The translations under genes and the position numbers were made by a program. The notes under the pieces are model-generated. The model was not told where the DNA came from, made no database searches, and was given only the letters and a program-made list of their open reading frames with translations. A DNA stretch of 64,000 bases from Escherichia coli. Its GTDB lineage: Bacteria > Pseudomonadota > Gammaproteobacteria > Enterobacterales > Enterobacteriaceae. Of the stretch, positions 9,374 to 18,949 are shown in pieces. The first letter of the stretch is position 1, and every line of letters starts with the position of its first letter. The stretch lies in assembly GCF_013315695.1 (NCBI RefSeq), contig NZ_CP054353.1; one strand, written 5' to 3'.

Positions 9374-10423
9374 TCAAACGATTAAATCCTGAACTTCCCT
9401 GACTGTCTGCTCAAAACGTCCGGTCTCCAGTTCAACGCCAATCGCACGACGCCCAAGCGCCAGTGCCGCTTTTACCGTTGAACCTGAGCCCATAAAAAAA
9501 TCTGCAACCAGGTCACCCGGACGACTGCTTGCGCTGATTATCTGCTGCAGCATTTCTGCCGGTTTTTCGCACGGATGTTTCCCGGGATAGAACTGCACCG
9601 GTTTATGTGTCCACACATCCGTGTACGGCACCTGCGCCGTCACACCAAAATACCGCCGCAGATGCTTATATTCACTCTGCAGCTCCACATACTGCCGGTT
9701 CAGTGACGTATACGTATCCACCAGCTGGTGGTGGGGCTTTTCCAGTTCACCGCGCTGATGTTTCTCTTCTGCCACCCGGGCAAACAGCGACTGTAATTTC
9801 AGATAATCGCTTTCGTTCGGTAGCTGCCACTGACTGGCACTGAACCAGTGCGACACCATGTTTTTCTTTCCTGTGGCATCTGCAATCTGTTTTGCCGTTA
9901 TCCCCAGGGCAGCGCGCGCATCACGAAAGTAAGAAATCAGCGGGGCCATCACATGCTGTTTCAGTGCACTGCCCTTCGCCGCATACCCGGCATCTTTCGG
10001 ACGATACGGCCCCTGATAATGTTCCGCGAACAGAATGCGCTCTGTGGCGGGGAAATACGCCCGCAGGCTTTCCTTGTTGCATCCGTTCCAGCGTCCGGAC
10101 GGCTTCGCCCAGATAATATGGTTCAGCACACTGAAGCGTTCACGCATCATGATTTCGATATCAGATGCCAGGCGATGACCACAGAACAGGTAAAGACTTC
10201 CGACAGGTTTCAGCACCCGCCAGAACTGCGCCAGACACTGGTCCAGCCACTTCAGGTAATCATCGTCGCCCTTCCACTGGTTATCCCAGCCCTCAGGCTT
10301 CACTTTAAAGTACGGCGGGTCCGTGACTATCAGGTCAACAGAATTTTCGGGTAACGACCGGATAAATTCCAGGCAGTCGGCGTTGATTAACTCACAACTG
10401 GATATTTTTACAGTATTAAGCAT
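9374..10423 (-). CDS. orphan DNA methyltransferase (beta-class N6-adenine/N4-cytosine type)
   Basis: 349-aa product with catalytic DPPY motif near the N-terminus (LIVTDPPYF) and AdoMet motif FFMGSGST near the C-terminus; no adjacent restriction endonuclease gene. Confidence 0.8.
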   Translation of the reverse strand: MLNTVKISSCELINADCLEFIRSLPENSVDLIVTDPPYFKVKPEGWDNQWKGDDDYLKWLDQCLAQFWRVLKPVGSLYLFCGHRLASDIEIMMRERFSVLNHIIWAKPSGRWNGCNKESLRAYFPATERILFAEHYQGPYRPKDAGYAAKGSALKQHVMAPLISYFRDARAALGITAKQIADATGKKNMVSHWFSASQWQLPNESDYLKLQSLFARVAEEKHQRGELEKPHHQLVDTYTSLNRQYVELQSEYKHLRRYFGVTAQVPYTDVWTHKPVQFYPGKHPCEKPAEMLQQIISASSRPGDLVADFFMGSGSTVKAALALGRRAIGVELETGRFEQTVREVQDLIV

Positions 10424-13927: not shown

Positions 13928-14614
13928 TCACTCCTTCTCTTCTTTTCCGTAGTGGAGTTGGCCAATTTTGATAAGAGGGCGTCCCTGAGATTTGCGGTGT
14001 AGATTGGTATCGCGCAGAGAATACACACAGCCACAATATTCCTGCTGATAGAATTTTTCGCGCTTGCTGATTTCAATCATACGGGACGAGCCGCCCTGCT
14101 TGCGCCAGTTATAATCCCAGTACACCATACCCGGATAATGCGCAACAGCTCGCCGCCCACACTCGTTAACCTGCTGCATATTTTTCCAGCGTGAAATGCC
14201 CAGTGAACTGCTGATCACACTGAAACCATTTTCAGCAGCGTACAACGCTGTCCGCTCAAAACGCATGTCAAAACACATGGTACAACGGATCCCCCTCTCA
14301 GGCTCCCATTCCATTCCTTTGGCACGTTCAAACCAGTTGTCGGTGTCGTAATCAGCATCGATAAACGGCACGCCGTGTTGTTCAGCAAAGCGAATATTTT
14401 CATCCTTACGAATTAAATACTCTTTCTGAGGATGAATGTTCGGGTTGTAGAAAAAGATGGTGTAGTCGATTCCCGAGGCCTGAAGCGCCTCCATCACTTC
14501 ACCGGAACATGGAGCACAGCAAGAGTGCAGTAGTAGTTTGTTTGCCCCGTTTGGGAGCTCCAATTTAGGCCGTTTGAAATCAGCAATAGTCATAAATATT
14601 TTTATTGGGGTCAT
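13928..14614 (-). CDS. QueH-like (DUF208) epoxyqueuosine reductase homologue
   Basis: 228-aa product with N-terminal [11 protein letters not shown] motif and further Cys motifs (CTMCF, YCGCVY) characteristic of the QueH/DUF208 family; true start may be the Met 7 codons downstream. Confidence 0.6.
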
Positions 14615-14767: not shown

Positions 14768-15208
14768 CTAGTAACGTCTAAAATACCTAACATTTCCTTG
14801 ATAAAATGCCAGTACACGCTGCATAGCTTCGCTCTTCCGGCACTCGCGACAGATTATATTCAGGCGCCTGTCGTAGCGGCGTATTTCGCCGTCTGGTAAC
14901 GACCAGATAAGGTCCGGATCAACCACTGCAGGTTTCTTCACCTTTGCCCTTGAGAGTTTTTTGCGAGCATTTTGCCAGTCCTTACGCGCCTGTTCAGACG
15001 GGAATAACCCGTAACCAGAGTTGTATACATCGCCACTGGCAACCAGCTCTCTGGCGAGAACACTCATCAGATATCTTGTCGCACCTGTCCTGGCTTCCAG
15101 TTGCCGCAACGTCTCGCGACCGCTCAGACGTACAAGTTCAACAACCTGCCCTTTAATTTTTTCCCGCTCTTCTTGTGTAAATACTTTTGCCATAAGCGCC
15201 TCCGGCAA
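14768..15208 (-). CDS. hypothetical phage protein (146 aa)
   Basis: ORF in the nin-like region; C-terminal CRECRK motif; no confident domain call. Confidence 0.5.
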   Translation of the reverse strand: MPEALMAKVFTQEEREKIKGQVVELVRLSGRETLRQLEARTGATRYLMSVLARELVASGDVYNSGYGLFPSEQARKDWQNARKKLSRAKVKKPAVVDPDLIWSLPDGEIRRYDRRLNIICRECRKSEAMQRVLAFYQGNVRYFRRY

Positions 15209-15979
15209 TCACTTTTCCGATACAACACGGCGGGAAGAATCAGTAATCTGTCGAACAATATCCCGGTGCTTGTTCAGCTCCCGCAGCGCGGCGCAGACTC
15301 GCTCCCACTTCTGAACATCACTTTTCGCCCTGCGCAGCGCCAGGTTTGCCCTGCGAAGGGACGGAAAAATCAGCTCATCTGCTTGCGTTTCGGTAAACGA
15401 TGGCAACGGCTGCACAATGTCCGCCACAGTTTCTGTTTTAATTTCTTCCTGTGTTGCGGCTTCCCGGACTGGTAACGCAGCACCTGCTGGCTGAGGAAAG
15501 GCCTTACCATCACTTTCCGTTACCAGCGCGGCTTTCGGCTCTGCTGGTAAATTATCGCCCGGCATGCAGTAACGAAATTTACCGTTCTGATTAACGCGTG
15601 CCAGCCGCCCCGTTGCGGTTACCACCGCCAGCGTGGAAGCAACCTTGCGAGTACTGACACCGAACTTACCCGCCAGTTCCTCACACGTTTTAGCCCCATC
15701 CTGACCGATAAACTCAATCATCATGTCTGCGGTAACTTTTTGTTCGACCTCCCCGGTCAGCATATCCTGTGCTTCAGATTTTACTGGCCGCTCTTCGGTT
15801 ACCCGGGATTCACCTTCGCCAGCCAGAAACCAGGTGTGACCAGTTTTATCAACGACGCCTTTTCTTTTGAGTTCCCACAGCTCGTTGACAGCCTCTTCAC
15901 GACTGATTCCAAGGCGAGCTGCCACCACATGTGAAGAGGCTTTTTTCAGTGCTTTCAGTGCGTCAGATACGGTTTCCAT
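15209..15979 (-). CDS. hypothetical phage protein (256 aa) with N-terminal winged-helix-like repeats
   Basis: ORF directly downstream of the DnaC-like gene; two similar N-terminal segments (SHVVAARLGISREEAVNELWELKRKG / KTCEELAGKFGVSTRKVASTLAVV). Confidence 0.5.
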   Translation of the reverse strand: METVSDALKALKKASSHVVAARLGISREEAVNELWELKRKGVVDKTGHTWFLAGEGESRVTEERPVKSEAQDMLTGEVEQKVTADMMIEFIGQDGAKTCEELAGKFGVSTRKVASTLAVVTATGRLARVNQNGKFRYCMPGDNLPAEPKAALVTESDGKAFPQPAGAALPVREAATQEEIKTETVADIVQPLPSFTETQADELIFPSLRRANLALRRAKSDVQKWERVCAALRELNKHRDIVRQITDSSRRVVSEK

Positions 15980-16000: not shown

Positions 16001-16747
16001 TTACTTCACAACCCTCATATTGCTGACATTTGGACGCCAGCTATCCCAGTTAAACGTCACCCATCGACCACCGTTCATGGTCATGCGGTCCATAATCCTC
16101 TCACCAAGAAGCGTACTCATTGCGGCATGATTCAGGTTTGTTAACATCCCGACACTGCACAGTGATGCTGTCCGGCGATCAATTATCTGGTGCAATACCA
16201 CCTGCTCGTTTTTCGTCTCCCGCTGAACGCCTATTTCATCCAGGACCAGCAAATCAACCCCGCAAAGCTCCTGTAAAAATTTTTCCCCGGATTTGCCGTT
16301 GTCGTAGCTGTCATGCAACACGCTCATGACGTCAGACACGGTGACGATAATCACGCTGCGCCCCTTCACCATCAGCCGGTTGCCCATCGCCGCTGCAAGG
16401 TGATTTTTCCCGGTGCCGGTTTTACCGCTGAACACAAAATTCGTGCACCCGGTCATCAGTTCGTCAGCTATGGATTTGGCCTGGCTCAGCGCGTATTTTT
16501 GCCCGTCGTTCTGCACCTGATAATTTGCAAACGAGCATTTGCTGTGCAGAGGCTGGATGCCCGAACGATTCAGGATTTTTTCCACCCGCAACTGGCGATT
16601 CTGGCGGTTAATCTCCTCGCTGCGTTTTCGTCCTTCAGCAAGTTGCCATTCCCGCCACTCCTCCACCGTCCGGTACGGTGGAACCGACCCCTGTGGTGCA
16701 AGTCTGCGAATACGTTCAAGACCCCCAACTGCCGCAATGTTTTTCAT
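16001..16747 (-). CDS. phage replication protein, DnaC-like helicase loader (YdaV-like)
   Basis: 248-aa product with Walker A GKTGTGKNHLAAAMG and Walker B LLVLDEIG. Confidence 0.85.
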   Translation of the reverse strand: MKNIAAVGGLERIRRLAPQGSVPPYRTVEEWREWQLAEGRKRSEEINRQNRQLRVEKILNRSGIQPLHSKCSFANYQVQNDGQKYALSQAKSIADELMTGCTNFVFSGKTGTGKNHLAAAMGNRLMVKGRSVIIVTVSDVMSVLHDSYDNGKSGEKFLQELCGVDLLVLDEIGVQRETKNEQVVLHQIIDRRTASLCSVGMLTNLNHAAMSTLLGERIMDRMTMNGGRWVTFNWDSWRPNVSNMRVVK

Positions 16748-16753
16748 GACACG

Positions 16754-17731
16754 TCACCCCCTGAATCCCGGCGGTATTTCAGTGTCCGGTTCAGAAATGT
16801 GATTCACGCAACGCTGCGCAGGCGAACGCCCCAGGCGGATAACCAGTTCATCCCATTTTTCCCGGAGTTTTGCCGGACTCATGATGTTTTTTACCCAGAA
16901 CGAATCCCGCTGGAGACGCCCAAACATTTCACAAATTTGTCTGTGAGTTCTGCCATCCAGCATCCGCATTGTGCGAACGTCATTGGCCCATGCTGTCCAG
17001 TTGGGTTCTTTCGGTCTAGTGATCTCGCCATCATAGCTGGCCGCCTGCTCGTAAAGACTCACGATTCGTCCCCAGATCCACTGTGCGCACACCAAATCTT
17101 CCTGACTTCCCCACTGGCGTTTTTTCGCACTGAACACAACCGCGTCAGGGTGTCGGGTTAAAAAATCCTGTTCAGCCGTCTGCGGGTCCGGTTGCGAAGC
17201 GTCCGGACAAGAAGATCTTTTATCTGACGGATCAGGTTTTAATACTGACGGATCGGGGTCAATCATCGCCCCCCTAATCGGCAGTTTTTTATCAACAGTT
17301 GATCCATCAAAATTTGACGGGTCAACCGTTGAGGGGTCAATATTTGACGGGTCAACTGTTAACGGGTCATTTTTTGCCGGGCTAATTTTTCTTTTCGGTT
17401 TATATGACTCACGCGCCGCCGCCGCAGCTGCTTCGAGTTTTTCCACATTAAGCCGATAGATATTGCTTACATTACGCCCACCGACCTTACGCTCTTCCTT
17501 CGTCAGCCAGCCCTCTTTCGCCAGTTCTGCAATAGCCGATTTCACTGTGGATTCACTTCTTGCACCGATCTGACGCCGGATAGTTTCAATGGCAGGCCAT
17601 GACACGCCCTCGTCATTGCTGTAGTCTGCAAGACGGGCCATAACCGCCACCCTGGATAAGATCATGCCGGTGAAGGCGCACCCTTCCCAGACAAGACCAT
17701 GAAGCTTGCTGCTCATAAAACCCCCGAACAC
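16754..17731 (-). CDS. phage replication initiator, O-like (YdaU-like)
   Basis: 325-aa product with N-terminal HTH-like region; central repeated peptide DPSNIDPSTVDPSNFDGSTVD encoded by DNA iterons; immediately upstream of the DnaC-like gene. Confidence 0.6.
   Translation of the reverse strand: MFGGFMSSKLHGLVWEGCAFTGMILSRVAVMARLADYSNDEGVSWPAIETIRRQIGARSESTVKSAIAELAKEGWLTKEERKVGGRNVSNIYRLNVEKLEAAAAAARESYKPKRKISPAKNDPLTVDPSNIDPSTVDPSNFDGSTVDKKLPIRGAMIDPDPSVLKPDPSDKRSSCPDASQPDPQTAEQDFLTRHPDAVVFSAKKRQWGSQEDLVCAQWIWGRIVSLYEQAASYDGEITRPKEPNWTAWANDVRTMRMLDGRTHRQICEMFGRLQRDSFWVKNIMSPAKLREKWDELVIRLGRSPAQRCVNHISEPDTEIPPGFRG
17220..17400. repeat. replication-origin-like iteron array inside the O-like gene
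   Basis: Repeated TGACGGGTCAA-type units (TTGACGGGTCAACCG, TTGACGGGTCAACTG, CTGACGGATCGGGGTCAAT, GTTGAGGGGTCAAT, GTTAACGGGTCA) followed by an AT-rich tract. Confidence 0.6.
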
Positions 17732-17738
17732 CGTGCTT

Positions 17739-18164
17739 TTAGTGCATCACCACAGCATTCCCTGCCGGGCCGCCGCGATTCATCTGGTCATACAAAACAA
17801 CCGCTGACGCAACAAAATCATCGACATCCTTCACCAGCCGATCCCTCCGTTCGACGATCTCACGGTAATATTCAGAACTGTGGCTGCGCATACGGGCCAC
17901 CAGCAAAGGCGGCATCGCCTTTTCGATCGCCGGTAACAGAGCCTGCATTTTTTCAACAGCATCAGGGGGGGCTTTCTCTACCCAGCGGAAAATTTTCTGG
18001 GTATTGCGAGCCAGGGCTTCCGGATGGCTGTCGTCATACAGTTCCGGGAACGTCATACCCAACTCAAAATAAGCCTGGGTTATTCCAGCTGCTGGAACTT
18101 TTTCGCCATCAGGACGCGCCCAGGCATTCATCGCCATGCGGATGTGTTCATGCTTGATTTTCAT
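17739..18164 (-). CDS. YdaT-like CII-type regulator
   Basis: 141-aa product MKIKHEHIRMAMNAWARPDGEKVPAAG...; position after the cro-like gene; assignment from my recall of Rac YdaT. Confidence 0.6.
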   Translation of the reverse strand: MKIKHEHIRMAMNAWARPDGEKVPAAGITQAYFELGMTFPELYDDSHPEALARNTQKIFRWVEKAPPDAVEKMQALLPAIEKAMPPLLVARMRSHSSEYYREIVERRDRLVKDVDDFVASAVVLYDQMNRGGPAGNAVVMH

Positions 18165-18429
18165 GAATCAAGCTCCTAGAAAGTGGTTGTGTTAACGTTT
18201 TGGTATCTTCCAGCTCGGGCCAAATATTCATCCAATCAAAAGGCCTTAGTTGCTGACGTGTAACTTCACCATTACTGGCTCGCTCAATAAGGACACATAA
18301 CGATGCCCCTAACACTTGACCTTTACTCAATGCCTTTCTTAGATAACCGATGCTGGTACCACACTCGCATGCAAACATACGCTGTTCATCTGACGAAAGA
18401 GAATTGAGAAATATTCTTAATTCTTCCAT
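18148..18429 (-). CDS. Cro-like HTH regulator (YdaS-like)
   Basis: 93-aa ORF divergent from the repressor gene; first gene of the minus-strand early operon. Confidence 0.55.
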   Translation of the reverse strand: MEELRIFLNSLSSDEQRMFACECGTSIGYLRKALSKGQVLGASLCVLIERASNGEVTRQQLRPFDWMNIWPELEDTKTLTQPLSRSLIHENQA

Positions 18430-18458: not shown

Positions 18459-18536
18459 TACCCACAGGTAAACAAAAGCCAATACCCACAGGTTGTTTAC
18501 CTTGCGGTAATCGCATCTATTATTTACCTATGGACA
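18459..18536. promoter_or_regulatory. OR-like operator cluster between cro-like and repressor genes
   Basis: Three TACC-N4-GGTA-type sites: TACCCACAGGTA (18459-18470), TACCCACAGGTT (18483-18494), TACCTATGGACA (18525-18536, overlapping the repressor ATG). Confidence 0.55.
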
Positions 18537-18949
18537 AATATGAATTTAGACGACAGCAACTCATCAAAATTCGTGATGAGAAATGCGATGGTAAAGCGGT
18601 TAACGTGGCCAGAAAGATCGGGCGCGAGCCTTCTTATGTATCAAGAATGTTGTACCCAGAGGGGAAAAAGGGAAAAAAACGGATCGCTGATGATATGGTG
18701 GAGATTATCGAAGAGTCCTTTGGGTTACCCCGGGGATGGATGGATGGTATCGTTTCATCATCAACGAACACAGCCTCCAGTTATGAAACAAGGGTTCTAA
18801 CGCCACGACAACGTATTTTTTTAGATCTCTTAGACGAACTGCCAGAAAGTGAAGCGGATAAATTATTAAAAACTCTTGAAGAGAAAAAACAGTATTACAA
18901 TATGATCTACGAAGAAATCCGTAAAAAGAAAGCACAAAACGCATCATAG
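18530..18949 (+). CDS. prophage repressor (CI-like, HTH)
   Basis: 139-aa ORF divergent from the cro-like gene; N-terminal HTH-like segment AVNVARKIGREPSYVSRMLY. Confidence 0.55.
   Translation: MDKYEFRRQQLIKIRDEKCDGKAVNVARKIGREPSYVSRMLYPEGKKGKKRIADDMVEIIEESFGLPRGWMDGIVSSSTNTASSYETRVLTPRQRIFLDLLDELPESEADKLLKTLEEKKQYYNMIYEEIRKKKAQNAS

Follow-up and report, generated by a model that had tools for sequence, protein, structure and literature searches.

A candidate replication origin in the linker-coding part of an O-like initiator gene of a lambdoid Escherichia coli prophage

Are short tandem repeats inside a phage replication gene maintained for the peptide they encode or for the DNA itself? The question is raised by an initiator gene on a stretch of 64,000 nucleotides of Escherichia coli DNA (NCBI RefSeq assembly GCF_013315695.1, contig NZ_CP054353.1; the whole stretch is called the window below); inside this gene lies a regular array of 15-bp repeats. 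A sequence-only reading of the window had taken these repeats for the iterons of a lambda-style origin embedded in an O-like gene. In phage lambda the origin is composed of iterons and an AT-rich tract in the middle of gene O. The iterons are inverted repeats, each the target of one O dimer, and the protein itself has an N-terminal domain that binds DNA and a C-terminal domain that binds P, separated by a flexible linker (PMC7466680; PMC6022878).

The proposal passed every computational test that was run. By analogy with lambda, the region from about 17209 to 17386 is probably the replication origin of a lambdoid E. coli prophage, located in the linker-coding part of its initiator gene. A lambda-style origin is suggested because the array is phased, is conserved as DNA, is situated between a winged-helix domain and a domain of the lambda O type, and belongs to an early operon in which it precedes a DnaC-like gene. 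The candidate origin is an uncharacterised example of a type that is well known.

The array includes six in-frame units of 15 bp (codons 111-140; Table 1), for which repeat finders gave a period of 15 and a super-period of 30. On the sense strand the units are, in order, ATTAGCCCGGCAAAA, which is degenerate, AATGACCCGTTAACA, GTTGACCCGTCAAAT, ATTGACCCCTCAACG, GTTGACCCGTCAAAT again and TTTGATGGATCAACT. Divided into codons, they read ATT AGC CCG GCA AAA, AAT GAC CCG TTA ACA and GTT GAC CCG TCA AAT for units 1-3 and ATT GAC CCC TCA ACG, GTT GAC CCG TCA AAT and TTT GAT GGA TCA ACT for units 4-6. A terminal half unit, GTTGATAAAAAACTG, follows; it begins with GTT GAT and retains only the left half-site before an A run. 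The encoded peptide, NDPLT-VDPSN-IDPST-VDPSN-FDGST-VD, has a period of five residues and is of the DPSxx type, as had been claimed. Read on the plus strand, five 12-mers of the form TTGACNNGTCAA (at most two mismatches) are spaced by exactly 15 bp between 17299 and 17370, which bears out the earlier count of at least five repeats. Two of them, at 17314 and 17344, are exact copies (TTGACGGGTCAA), and the remaining 18 matches of this quality in the window are scattered and occur at or below the chance rate. The initiator frame thus carries five to six tandem sites, well within a definition calling for at least three, between the segments for its DNA-binding and C-terminal domains.

Two randomisations address whether such an array could be fortuitous. 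Shuffling the codons of the gene (n=5000) gave a longest phased chain of two, against five observed. With the protein kept fixed and its codons drawn anew from those of the gene itself, a pool with a bias towards the array codons, the chain of five survived in only six of 5000 trials. The array is therefore not a product of chance, and its regularity as DNA exceeds what a DPSxx peptide repeat needs.

Each unit has internal dyad symmetry, with the core TTGAC-NN-GTCAA in the window and TGA-N4-TCA across lineages, and this implies a binding site for a dimer. The conserved TGA and TCA blocks alternate at distances of 7 and 8 bp, and two registers, TGA-N4-TCA and TCAA-N3-TTGA, are equally possible as predicted sites. 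It is also conceivable, though rather unlikely, that the twelve alternating half-sites are coated by a continuous winged-helix filament instead of discrete dimers. The same symmetry allows the array to fold, which leads to an explanation of a different type: that what is selected is a long stem formed in mRNA or single-stranded DNA, for translation control or as a structural signal. A stretch of 121 nt indeed folds far better than shuffled sequences (z = -5.8 as RNA and -4.2 as DNA), and the arrays of all 11 lineages described below behave likewise (z from -3.8 to -8.3). Palindromic units must fold in this way, so the fold is not independent evidence. Moreover, the paired TGA and TCA are invariant and do not covary, as befits a sequence-specific binding site and not a stem, and the details of the stem vary between lineages. 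We regard a selected hairpin as very unlikely.

The origin of the constraint can be examined in relatives of the gene. A tblastn search with the N-terminal 180 residues yielded 135 phage records and a scan of viral contigs 80 more loci. From these, 62 distinct sequences were drawn and 11 lineage representatives chosen (the window type, its 80% and 65% relatives, the Klebsiella group, SfIV, 733R5, LLS, Yersinia YeP1 and phiP27); phage phiNP was examined in addition. The relatives come from phages of E. coli, Shigella, Klebsiella, Citrobacter and Yersinia and their N-terminal regions are 44-60% identical. An array with a 15-bp period is present in 11 of the 11 representatives at the same place, directly after the winged helix, and includes three to eight units. 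The expectation that the repeats would be conserved in homologous initiator genes thus proved correct for five genera, in position, in period and at the level of the DNA. Close relatives differ by whole units; those from IMG/VR (84-99% identical) have three to six 15-bp units each (e.g. L067, L072 and L058), which means that array copy number is polymorphic within E. coli prophages.

These comparisons separate the DNA from the peptide. If the repeat were a feature of the protein only, a DPSxx linker selected as amino acids with a DNA periodicity that is purely passive, one would look for a constant peptide. Instead the encoded peptides vary (VDPSN, SDASK, FEGSK, IDPPT) whereas the DNA core is constant: the conserved unit, T-GA-N4-TCA-A, is a palindrome that crosses codon boundaries and takes in two wobble positions. 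Among 55 units, the wobble T of codon 1 carries 1.69 bits, against 0.41 and 0.58 bits for the first and second positions of that codon. Information is also high at the G and A of codon 2 (1.47 and 1.77 bits), at the T, C and wobble A of codon 4 (1.47, 1.62 and 1.69 bits) and at the first A of codon 5 (1.36 bits). It is the amino acids which form the variable part, mainly S, F, I or V at codon 1, P, A, G or T at codon 3 and K, T, N or E at codon 5. Other synonymous sites are randomised across lineages, in contrast to the near-invariant wobble T of codon 1 and wobble A of TCA. TCA is the serine codon in 44 of 47 cases within the arrays, compared to 29 of 231 in the remainder of these genes (Fisher 6e-28). 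For the 90 aligned codons of the N-terminal domain, wobble positions have a mean of 0.68 bits, rising only to 0.71 at invariant residues, and none of the 90 columns has a wobble base far better conserved than positions 1 and 2.

Since bases are conserved across codon boundaries and at wobble positions while the amino acids vary, selection acts on the DNA; the pattern indicates that the array is selected as such and has the signature of a DNA binding site rather than of a peptide. Recent horizontal transfer as the cause of the wobble conservation was rejected, as the variable positions of the units are strongly diverged between lineages. A purely peptidic role does find some agreement in the data: the units are in frame with a period-5 peptide, the segment coincides with a predicted disordered linker and copy number varies as it would for a slippage-prone coding repeat. 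Set against the variable amino acids, the conserved wobbles and the loss of the phased chain in 4994 of 5000 synonymous redraws, this explanation appears extremely improbable. A distant relative bears on the same point. In Pseudomonas phage phi2 (locus L093, 1525-2271), a gene with an HTH_36 domain has tandem repeats of period 17 and 22 nt immediately behind the part for the winged helix (gene nucleotides 229-366). Neither period is in register with the reading frame, so the phi2 repeats cannot be a peptide repeat, and they are probably a different iteron set at the same position.

The architecture of the protein parallels that of lambda O, in the order DNA-binding domain, repeats, linker and C-terminal domain. 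In E. coli genomes the gene is annotated simply as 'helix-turn-helix domain-containing protein', yet the PHROG 391 profile 'replication initiation O-like' covers its residues 6-325 (E 2e-115), a full-length match, and Pfam HTH_36 is recognised with 27.8 bits against a cut-off of 25. The AlphaFold2 model of residues 1-105 has the order helix-helix-helix-helix-strand-strand-helix, with block-mean confidence (pLDDT) values of 73-90. Every match returned by Foldseek with this model is a winged-helix DNA binder (MarR, ArsR, PadR); the fold search found generic winged helices and no specific initiator. This domain is presumed to be the iteron-binding part. Residues 110-175, predicted to be disordered, are exactly the stretch coded by the array together with the GATC boxes described below. 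The domain that follows is homologous to the C-terminal part of lambda O (residues about 171-277; BLASTP: 39% identity over 119 aa, E 5e-26), which has been described as P-binding (PMC6022878). The similarity to O-type initiators that had been presumed stands for the C-terminal homology. The N-terminal domain is a DNA-binding winged helix but not of PF04492, and its resemblance to O-type DNA-binding domains is at most one of fold class.

The protein ends in a 21-residue tail, AQRCVNHISEPDTEIPPGFRG, which matches the extreme C-terminus of E. coli DnaT (PDB 2ru8, 6aep and 9zbt; NCBIfam DnaT) and is the sole match of the initiator among solved structures searched by sequence. The same tail ends Rac YdaU, whose N-terminus is unrelated, as well as the proteins of SfIV and of the Klebsiella group (...GFRG). 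By mimicking DnaT, this tail may give access to the DnaB/DnaC machinery of the host; it also accounts for the label 'primosomal protein I' on phage relatives.

Table 1. Features of the initiator gene and its surroundings (window coordinates)
Feature	Position	Strand	Basis or remark
Initiator gene	16754-17716	minus	320 aa from ATG at 17716 (RefSeq start); the open reading frame listing extends to GTG at 17731
N-terminal winged-helix DNA-binding domain, aa 1-105	17402-17716	minus	AlphaFold2, Foldseek, HTH_36
Predicted disordered linker, aa 110-175	17192-17389	minus	pLDDT <50 (AlphaFold2)
C-terminal domain, aa 182-300	16817-17173	minus	Homologous to lambda O C-terminal, P-binding domain
DnaT-like tail, last 21 residues	16757-16819	minus	Matches extreme C-terminus of E. 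coli DnaT
Iteron array of six 15-bp units in frame, codons 111-140	17297-17386	minus	Repeat finders and sequence reading
Palindromic cores TTGACNNGTCAA	17299-17310, 17314-17325, 17329-17340, 17344-17355, 17359-17370	read on plus strand	At most two mismatches
Terminal half unit GTTGATAAAAAACTG	17282-17296	minus	Left half-site only, then A run (sequence reading)
Two exact GATCCGTCAG boxes	17224-17233, 17245-17254	minus	21 bp apart; each is an iteron right half plus a Dam site (GATC)
Third GATC, within AGATCT	17214-17217		Just before the mosaic joint
Fourth GATC, inside the array	17301-17304		
Least stable 40-mer of the gene	17209-17248		68% AT, z = 2.1; candidate unwinding region
AT-rich tract of the sequence-only reading	17366-17405		67.5% AT against 48% for the gene; codes KPKRKISPAKN
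DnaC-like helicase-loader gene	16001-16747	minus	Directly downstream of the initiator gene
cII-like/YdaT-like gene	17739-18164	minus	Upstream, same operon (Pfam, PHROG)
cro-like/YdaS-like gene	18148-18429	minus	Upstream, same operon (Pfam, PHROG)
Divergent repressor-like gene	18530-18949	plus	PHROG 5736 'transcriptional regulator'

The array is also tied to the N-terminal domain by descent. Compared with the O genes of mEp460, HannyBb and PhiR42_1, the window gene shows DNA similarity only over 16761-17221 (86% identity), so that the mosaic joint is found just past the last GATC box. The mEp460 gene has the C-terminal half in common with the window gene, its N-terminal half being unrelated and lacking such an array, and the HannyBb gene also differs in its N-terminal half. 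The reverse is seen as well: one and the same N-terminal domain, with its array and boxes, precedes a lambda-O-like C-terminus in the window, SfIV and 733R5, Phg_2220_C in phiNP and a third, unrelated C-terminal sequence in phiP27. Judged from these joints, the array and the two to three GATCCGTCA boxes downstream are inherited with the N-terminal domain as one cassette, in accordance with the rule, classical for lambdoid phages, that specificity for the origin follows the N-terminal half of the initiator.

The boxes form the second conserved element. The two exact GATCCGTCAG boxes of the window, which the sequence-only reading had seen as CTGACGGATCAGG and CTGACGGATCGGG (17224-17257), contribute to a group of four GATC sites within 91 bp (17214-17304). 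Two to three GATCCGTCA boxes are located within 120 nt after the array in all 11 lineage representatives. Their aspartate codon is GAT in 25 of 25 cases, although GAC is the commoner aspartate codon inside the arrays, and in the phiP27 box serine is replaced by glutamine while GATCC is kept. Clusters of GATC sites in or beside the unwinding regions of oriC and P1 oriR make initiation there sensitive to Dam methylation and SeqA. By comparison with these origins, it is likely that the GATC sites of the array region link the candidate origin to Dam and SeqA.

AT content gives a less clear picture. The least stable 40-mer of the gene (Table 1) occupies the position which the AT tract has relative to the iterons in lambda. 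The effect is modest, with equal or lower stability in 4% of the 40-mers of the window. The box region also contributes to the most AT-rich 30-mers of the gene (63-70% AT) in most other lineages. An AT-rich tract had been proposed to follow the repeats at 17366-17405. The tract exists, but it is weak and is found upstream of the repeats in the orientation of the gene; the equivalent 40 nt of other lineages are 45-55% AT, and by this comparison it is specific to the window lineage. What the window gene does not have is a strongly AT-rich stretch of about 40 bp immediately behind the repeats that would serve as the unwinding element.

This leaves room for an explanation in which the array is a genuine binding site and initiation takes place elsewhere, the site serving autoregulation or copy control (titration, handcuffing) or being recognised by another phage or host factor. 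DNA-level selection of the kind described is a constraint resembling that on binding sites and does not reveal the role of the site, no strong AT-rich unwinding element adjoins the array, and iteron arrays of plasmids are generally known to function in copy-number control as well. On the other hand, the position of the array between the two initiator domains matches ori-lambda and the annotated origin of P22, and the array is co-inherited with the DNA-binding domain. Exact TGACNNGTCA sites in the homologous loci (3.5-4.5 kb) occur almost only in the array, and neither the window nor these loci contain a second motif cluster. An internal promoter, with TTGAC as its -35 element, was considered and rejected: a scan gave no promoter-like site overlapping the array or near it. 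A regulatory site without origin function is therefore judged unlikely.

Several observations weigh against an origin at this place. For dimeric winged-helix proteins, a 15-bp period with half-sites 6-8 bp apart is unusual. No sequence similarity could be detected between the N-terminal domain and lambda O (hhalign probability 0.1%), and binding of the protein to the repeats is assumed. A strong unwinding element is absent, the best 40-mers reaching 68-70% AT (z about 2) against 78-80% in lambda. Slippage homogenises tandem repeats and so inflates similarity within an array, though not between lineages, and the units used for the information values were gathered with a pattern filter (at most three mismatches) which, the arrays being contiguous, could bias only their edges. 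Finally, in strain CE10, where the initiator gene belongs to a lambdoid prophage adjoining ompW, this prophage has an insertion sequence and frameshifted genes and so may not be inducible.

With the array region as the probable origin, initiation can be pictured on the lambda model. The palindromic units would be bound by dimers of the N-terminal winged helix, and these would assemble into a nucleoprotein complex as those of lambda O do. Transcripts started at the early promoter would extend past the cro-like and cII-like genes and across the array, and this transcription would activate the site, as in lambda. The duplex would then open in the modestly AT-rich region of the GATC boxes, at about 17209-17260, and the C-terminal domain and DnaT-like tail would recruit the host DnaB helicase via the adjacent DnaC-like loader. 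Through the GATC sites, firing or re-firing would probably be coupled to Dam methylation and SeqA. The DPSxx peptide repeat would be a tolerated by-product, the disordered linker accepting whatever the binding sites encode.

A stronger version of the link to methylation would hold that this widespread initiator family has an origin without a classical AT-rich element, which relies on the conserved GATCCGTCA half-iteron Dam boxes and whose initiation or re-initiation is gated by adenine methylation and SeqA, in the manner of oriC and P1 oriR. We think this rather unlikely. If true, it could explain the adenine methyltransferase gene found directly after the initiator gene in several relatives. 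Such a gene is located directly after the initiator or one gene further on in 733R5 (PF02086) and in phiNP and YeP1 (PF05869), and the window prophage has an N6_N4_Mtase gene at 9374-10423. From these gene contents, a link between origin and methylation in the HTH_36 initiator family is possible.

The surroundings of the gene are those of a replication module, as the sequence-only reading had assigned it: on the minus strand the cro-like and cII-like genes come first, then the initiator and then the DnaC-like loader gene. The latter is recognised by NCBIfam as PRK12377 (E 1e-151) and DnaC (E 6e-89) and belongs to PHROG 50. Early rightward transcription in lambda is organised similarly, with cro and cII before the initiator and a helicase-loader gene after it. 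Ori-lambda is like the candidate origin in lying inside the initiator gene between the parts for the DNA-binding and C-terminal domains, in having tandem repeats with internal dyad symmetry which code for the flexible linker, and in the homologous C-terminal domain of its initiator. The differences are also clear. The N-terminal domain of lambda O belongs to PF04492 (Phage_rep_O, E 6e-36) whereas the window protein is of the HTH_36 type with no PF04492 match and, unlike lambda O, ends in the DnaT-like tail. Lambda has four iterons of 18 bp placed 20-24 bp apart and the window cores of 10-12 bp in a strict 15-bp period; the 78-80% AT 40-mer directly after lambda iteron 4 has no counterpart in the window, which has the two to three conserved GATC boxes. 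The lambda loader is of the P family while the downstream gene of the window is DnaC-like, so that no gene of the lambda P family directly follows the initiator gene here.

Phage P22 provides a second comparison. Its gene 18 includes an annotated rep_origin with repeats in the middle of the gene, as in the window, and both illustrate lambdoid initiators as mosaics of N- and C-terminal modules. The P22 protein is the converse mosaic, with a lambda-type N-terminus (PF04492, E 7e-38) and a different C-terminus, and has no significant similarity to the window protein. The P22 repeats are of the TTACC...GGTAAAA type and are followed by a clearly AT-rich tract resembling that of lambda, and the partner protein is a DnaB-like helicase.

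The Rac prophage of E. coli K-12 (ydaS-ydaT-ydaU-ydaV) resembles the window in its YdaS- and YdaT-like genes upstream, in the same order, in YdaV, which is 80% identical to the DnaC-like protein, and in the DnaT-like tail of YdaU. An active origin, oriJ, has been ascribed to Rac (PMC3945230). The initiator YdaU belongs to DUF1376 and has only its last 19 residues in common with the window protein, so the latter is not of the Rac type, and in neither ydaU nor its flanks was a phased array of the TGAC type detected. A comparison with Rac had been suggested for the origin region; with a different initiator and no such array, Rac was rejected as a model for it.

Plasmid origins are a third point of reference. 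Tandem repeats recognised by winged-helix Rep proteins are typical of plasmid iteron origins and of P1 oriR, and those of plasmids are usually direct repeats, 17-22 bp long, which are spaced by about two helical turns and lie outside the rep gene, together with DnaA boxes and an AT-rich region. The window units differ from this plasmid type (RepA, pi, TrfA) in being palindromic, in their 15-bp period and in being coding; the gene has one non-conserved DnaA-box-like site and no strong AT-rich tract. That site, TTTTCCACA (17439-17447, about 55 bp upstream of the array in gene orientation), is unproven as a functional element, the window total of five being at the chance level, and reading of the SfIV-like and Klebsiella lineages showed that it is not present there. 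A lone exact TGACACGTCA at 16747-16756, which spans the stop of the initiator gene and the start of the DnaC-like gene, is probably due to chance as relatives differ at this junction.

Literature searches for the motif strings and for iterons of SfII, SfIV and their relatives found neither the motif nor the origins of this family described, subscription journals being outside their coverage. The data provide an exact candidate origin for a very common type of E. coli prophage: a copy of the initiator gene with at least 80% coverage is present in 1513 of 5426 complete genomes, and the window matches E. coli chromosomes at 100% identity. They also define a repeat consensus for the initiator family, which combines an HTH_36 N-terminal domain with a T-GA-N4-TCA-A array of 15-bp period and whose genes are labelled in phage records only as 'replication protein O' or 'primosomal protein'. 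This may be of use in prophage annotation, in the design of replication assays and in predicting replication specificity (incompatibility) among mosaic lambdoid phages. The array leaves the understanding of phage replication unchanged. It is a clear case of wobble bases being more conserved than the first and second codon positions, a binding site written through a disordered linker.

Some features of the neighbouring genes may be added. The cro-like/YdaS-like and cII-like/YdaT-like genes overlap by 17 nt (18148-18164), and their naming is in conflict: Pfam describes the YdaS and YdaT families as 'toxins' while in PHROG they appear as a repressor and an activator of the CII type. On the minus strand, the DnaC-like gene is followed directly by genes for DUF1627 (15209-15979) and DUF977 (14768-15208) proteins, both with weak helix-turn-helix-like matches. 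Further downstream of the replication module, a gene for QueH, an epoxyqueuosine reductase (13928-14614, minus strand; PF02677, E 1e-65), is a tRNA-modification gene carried as prophage cargo.

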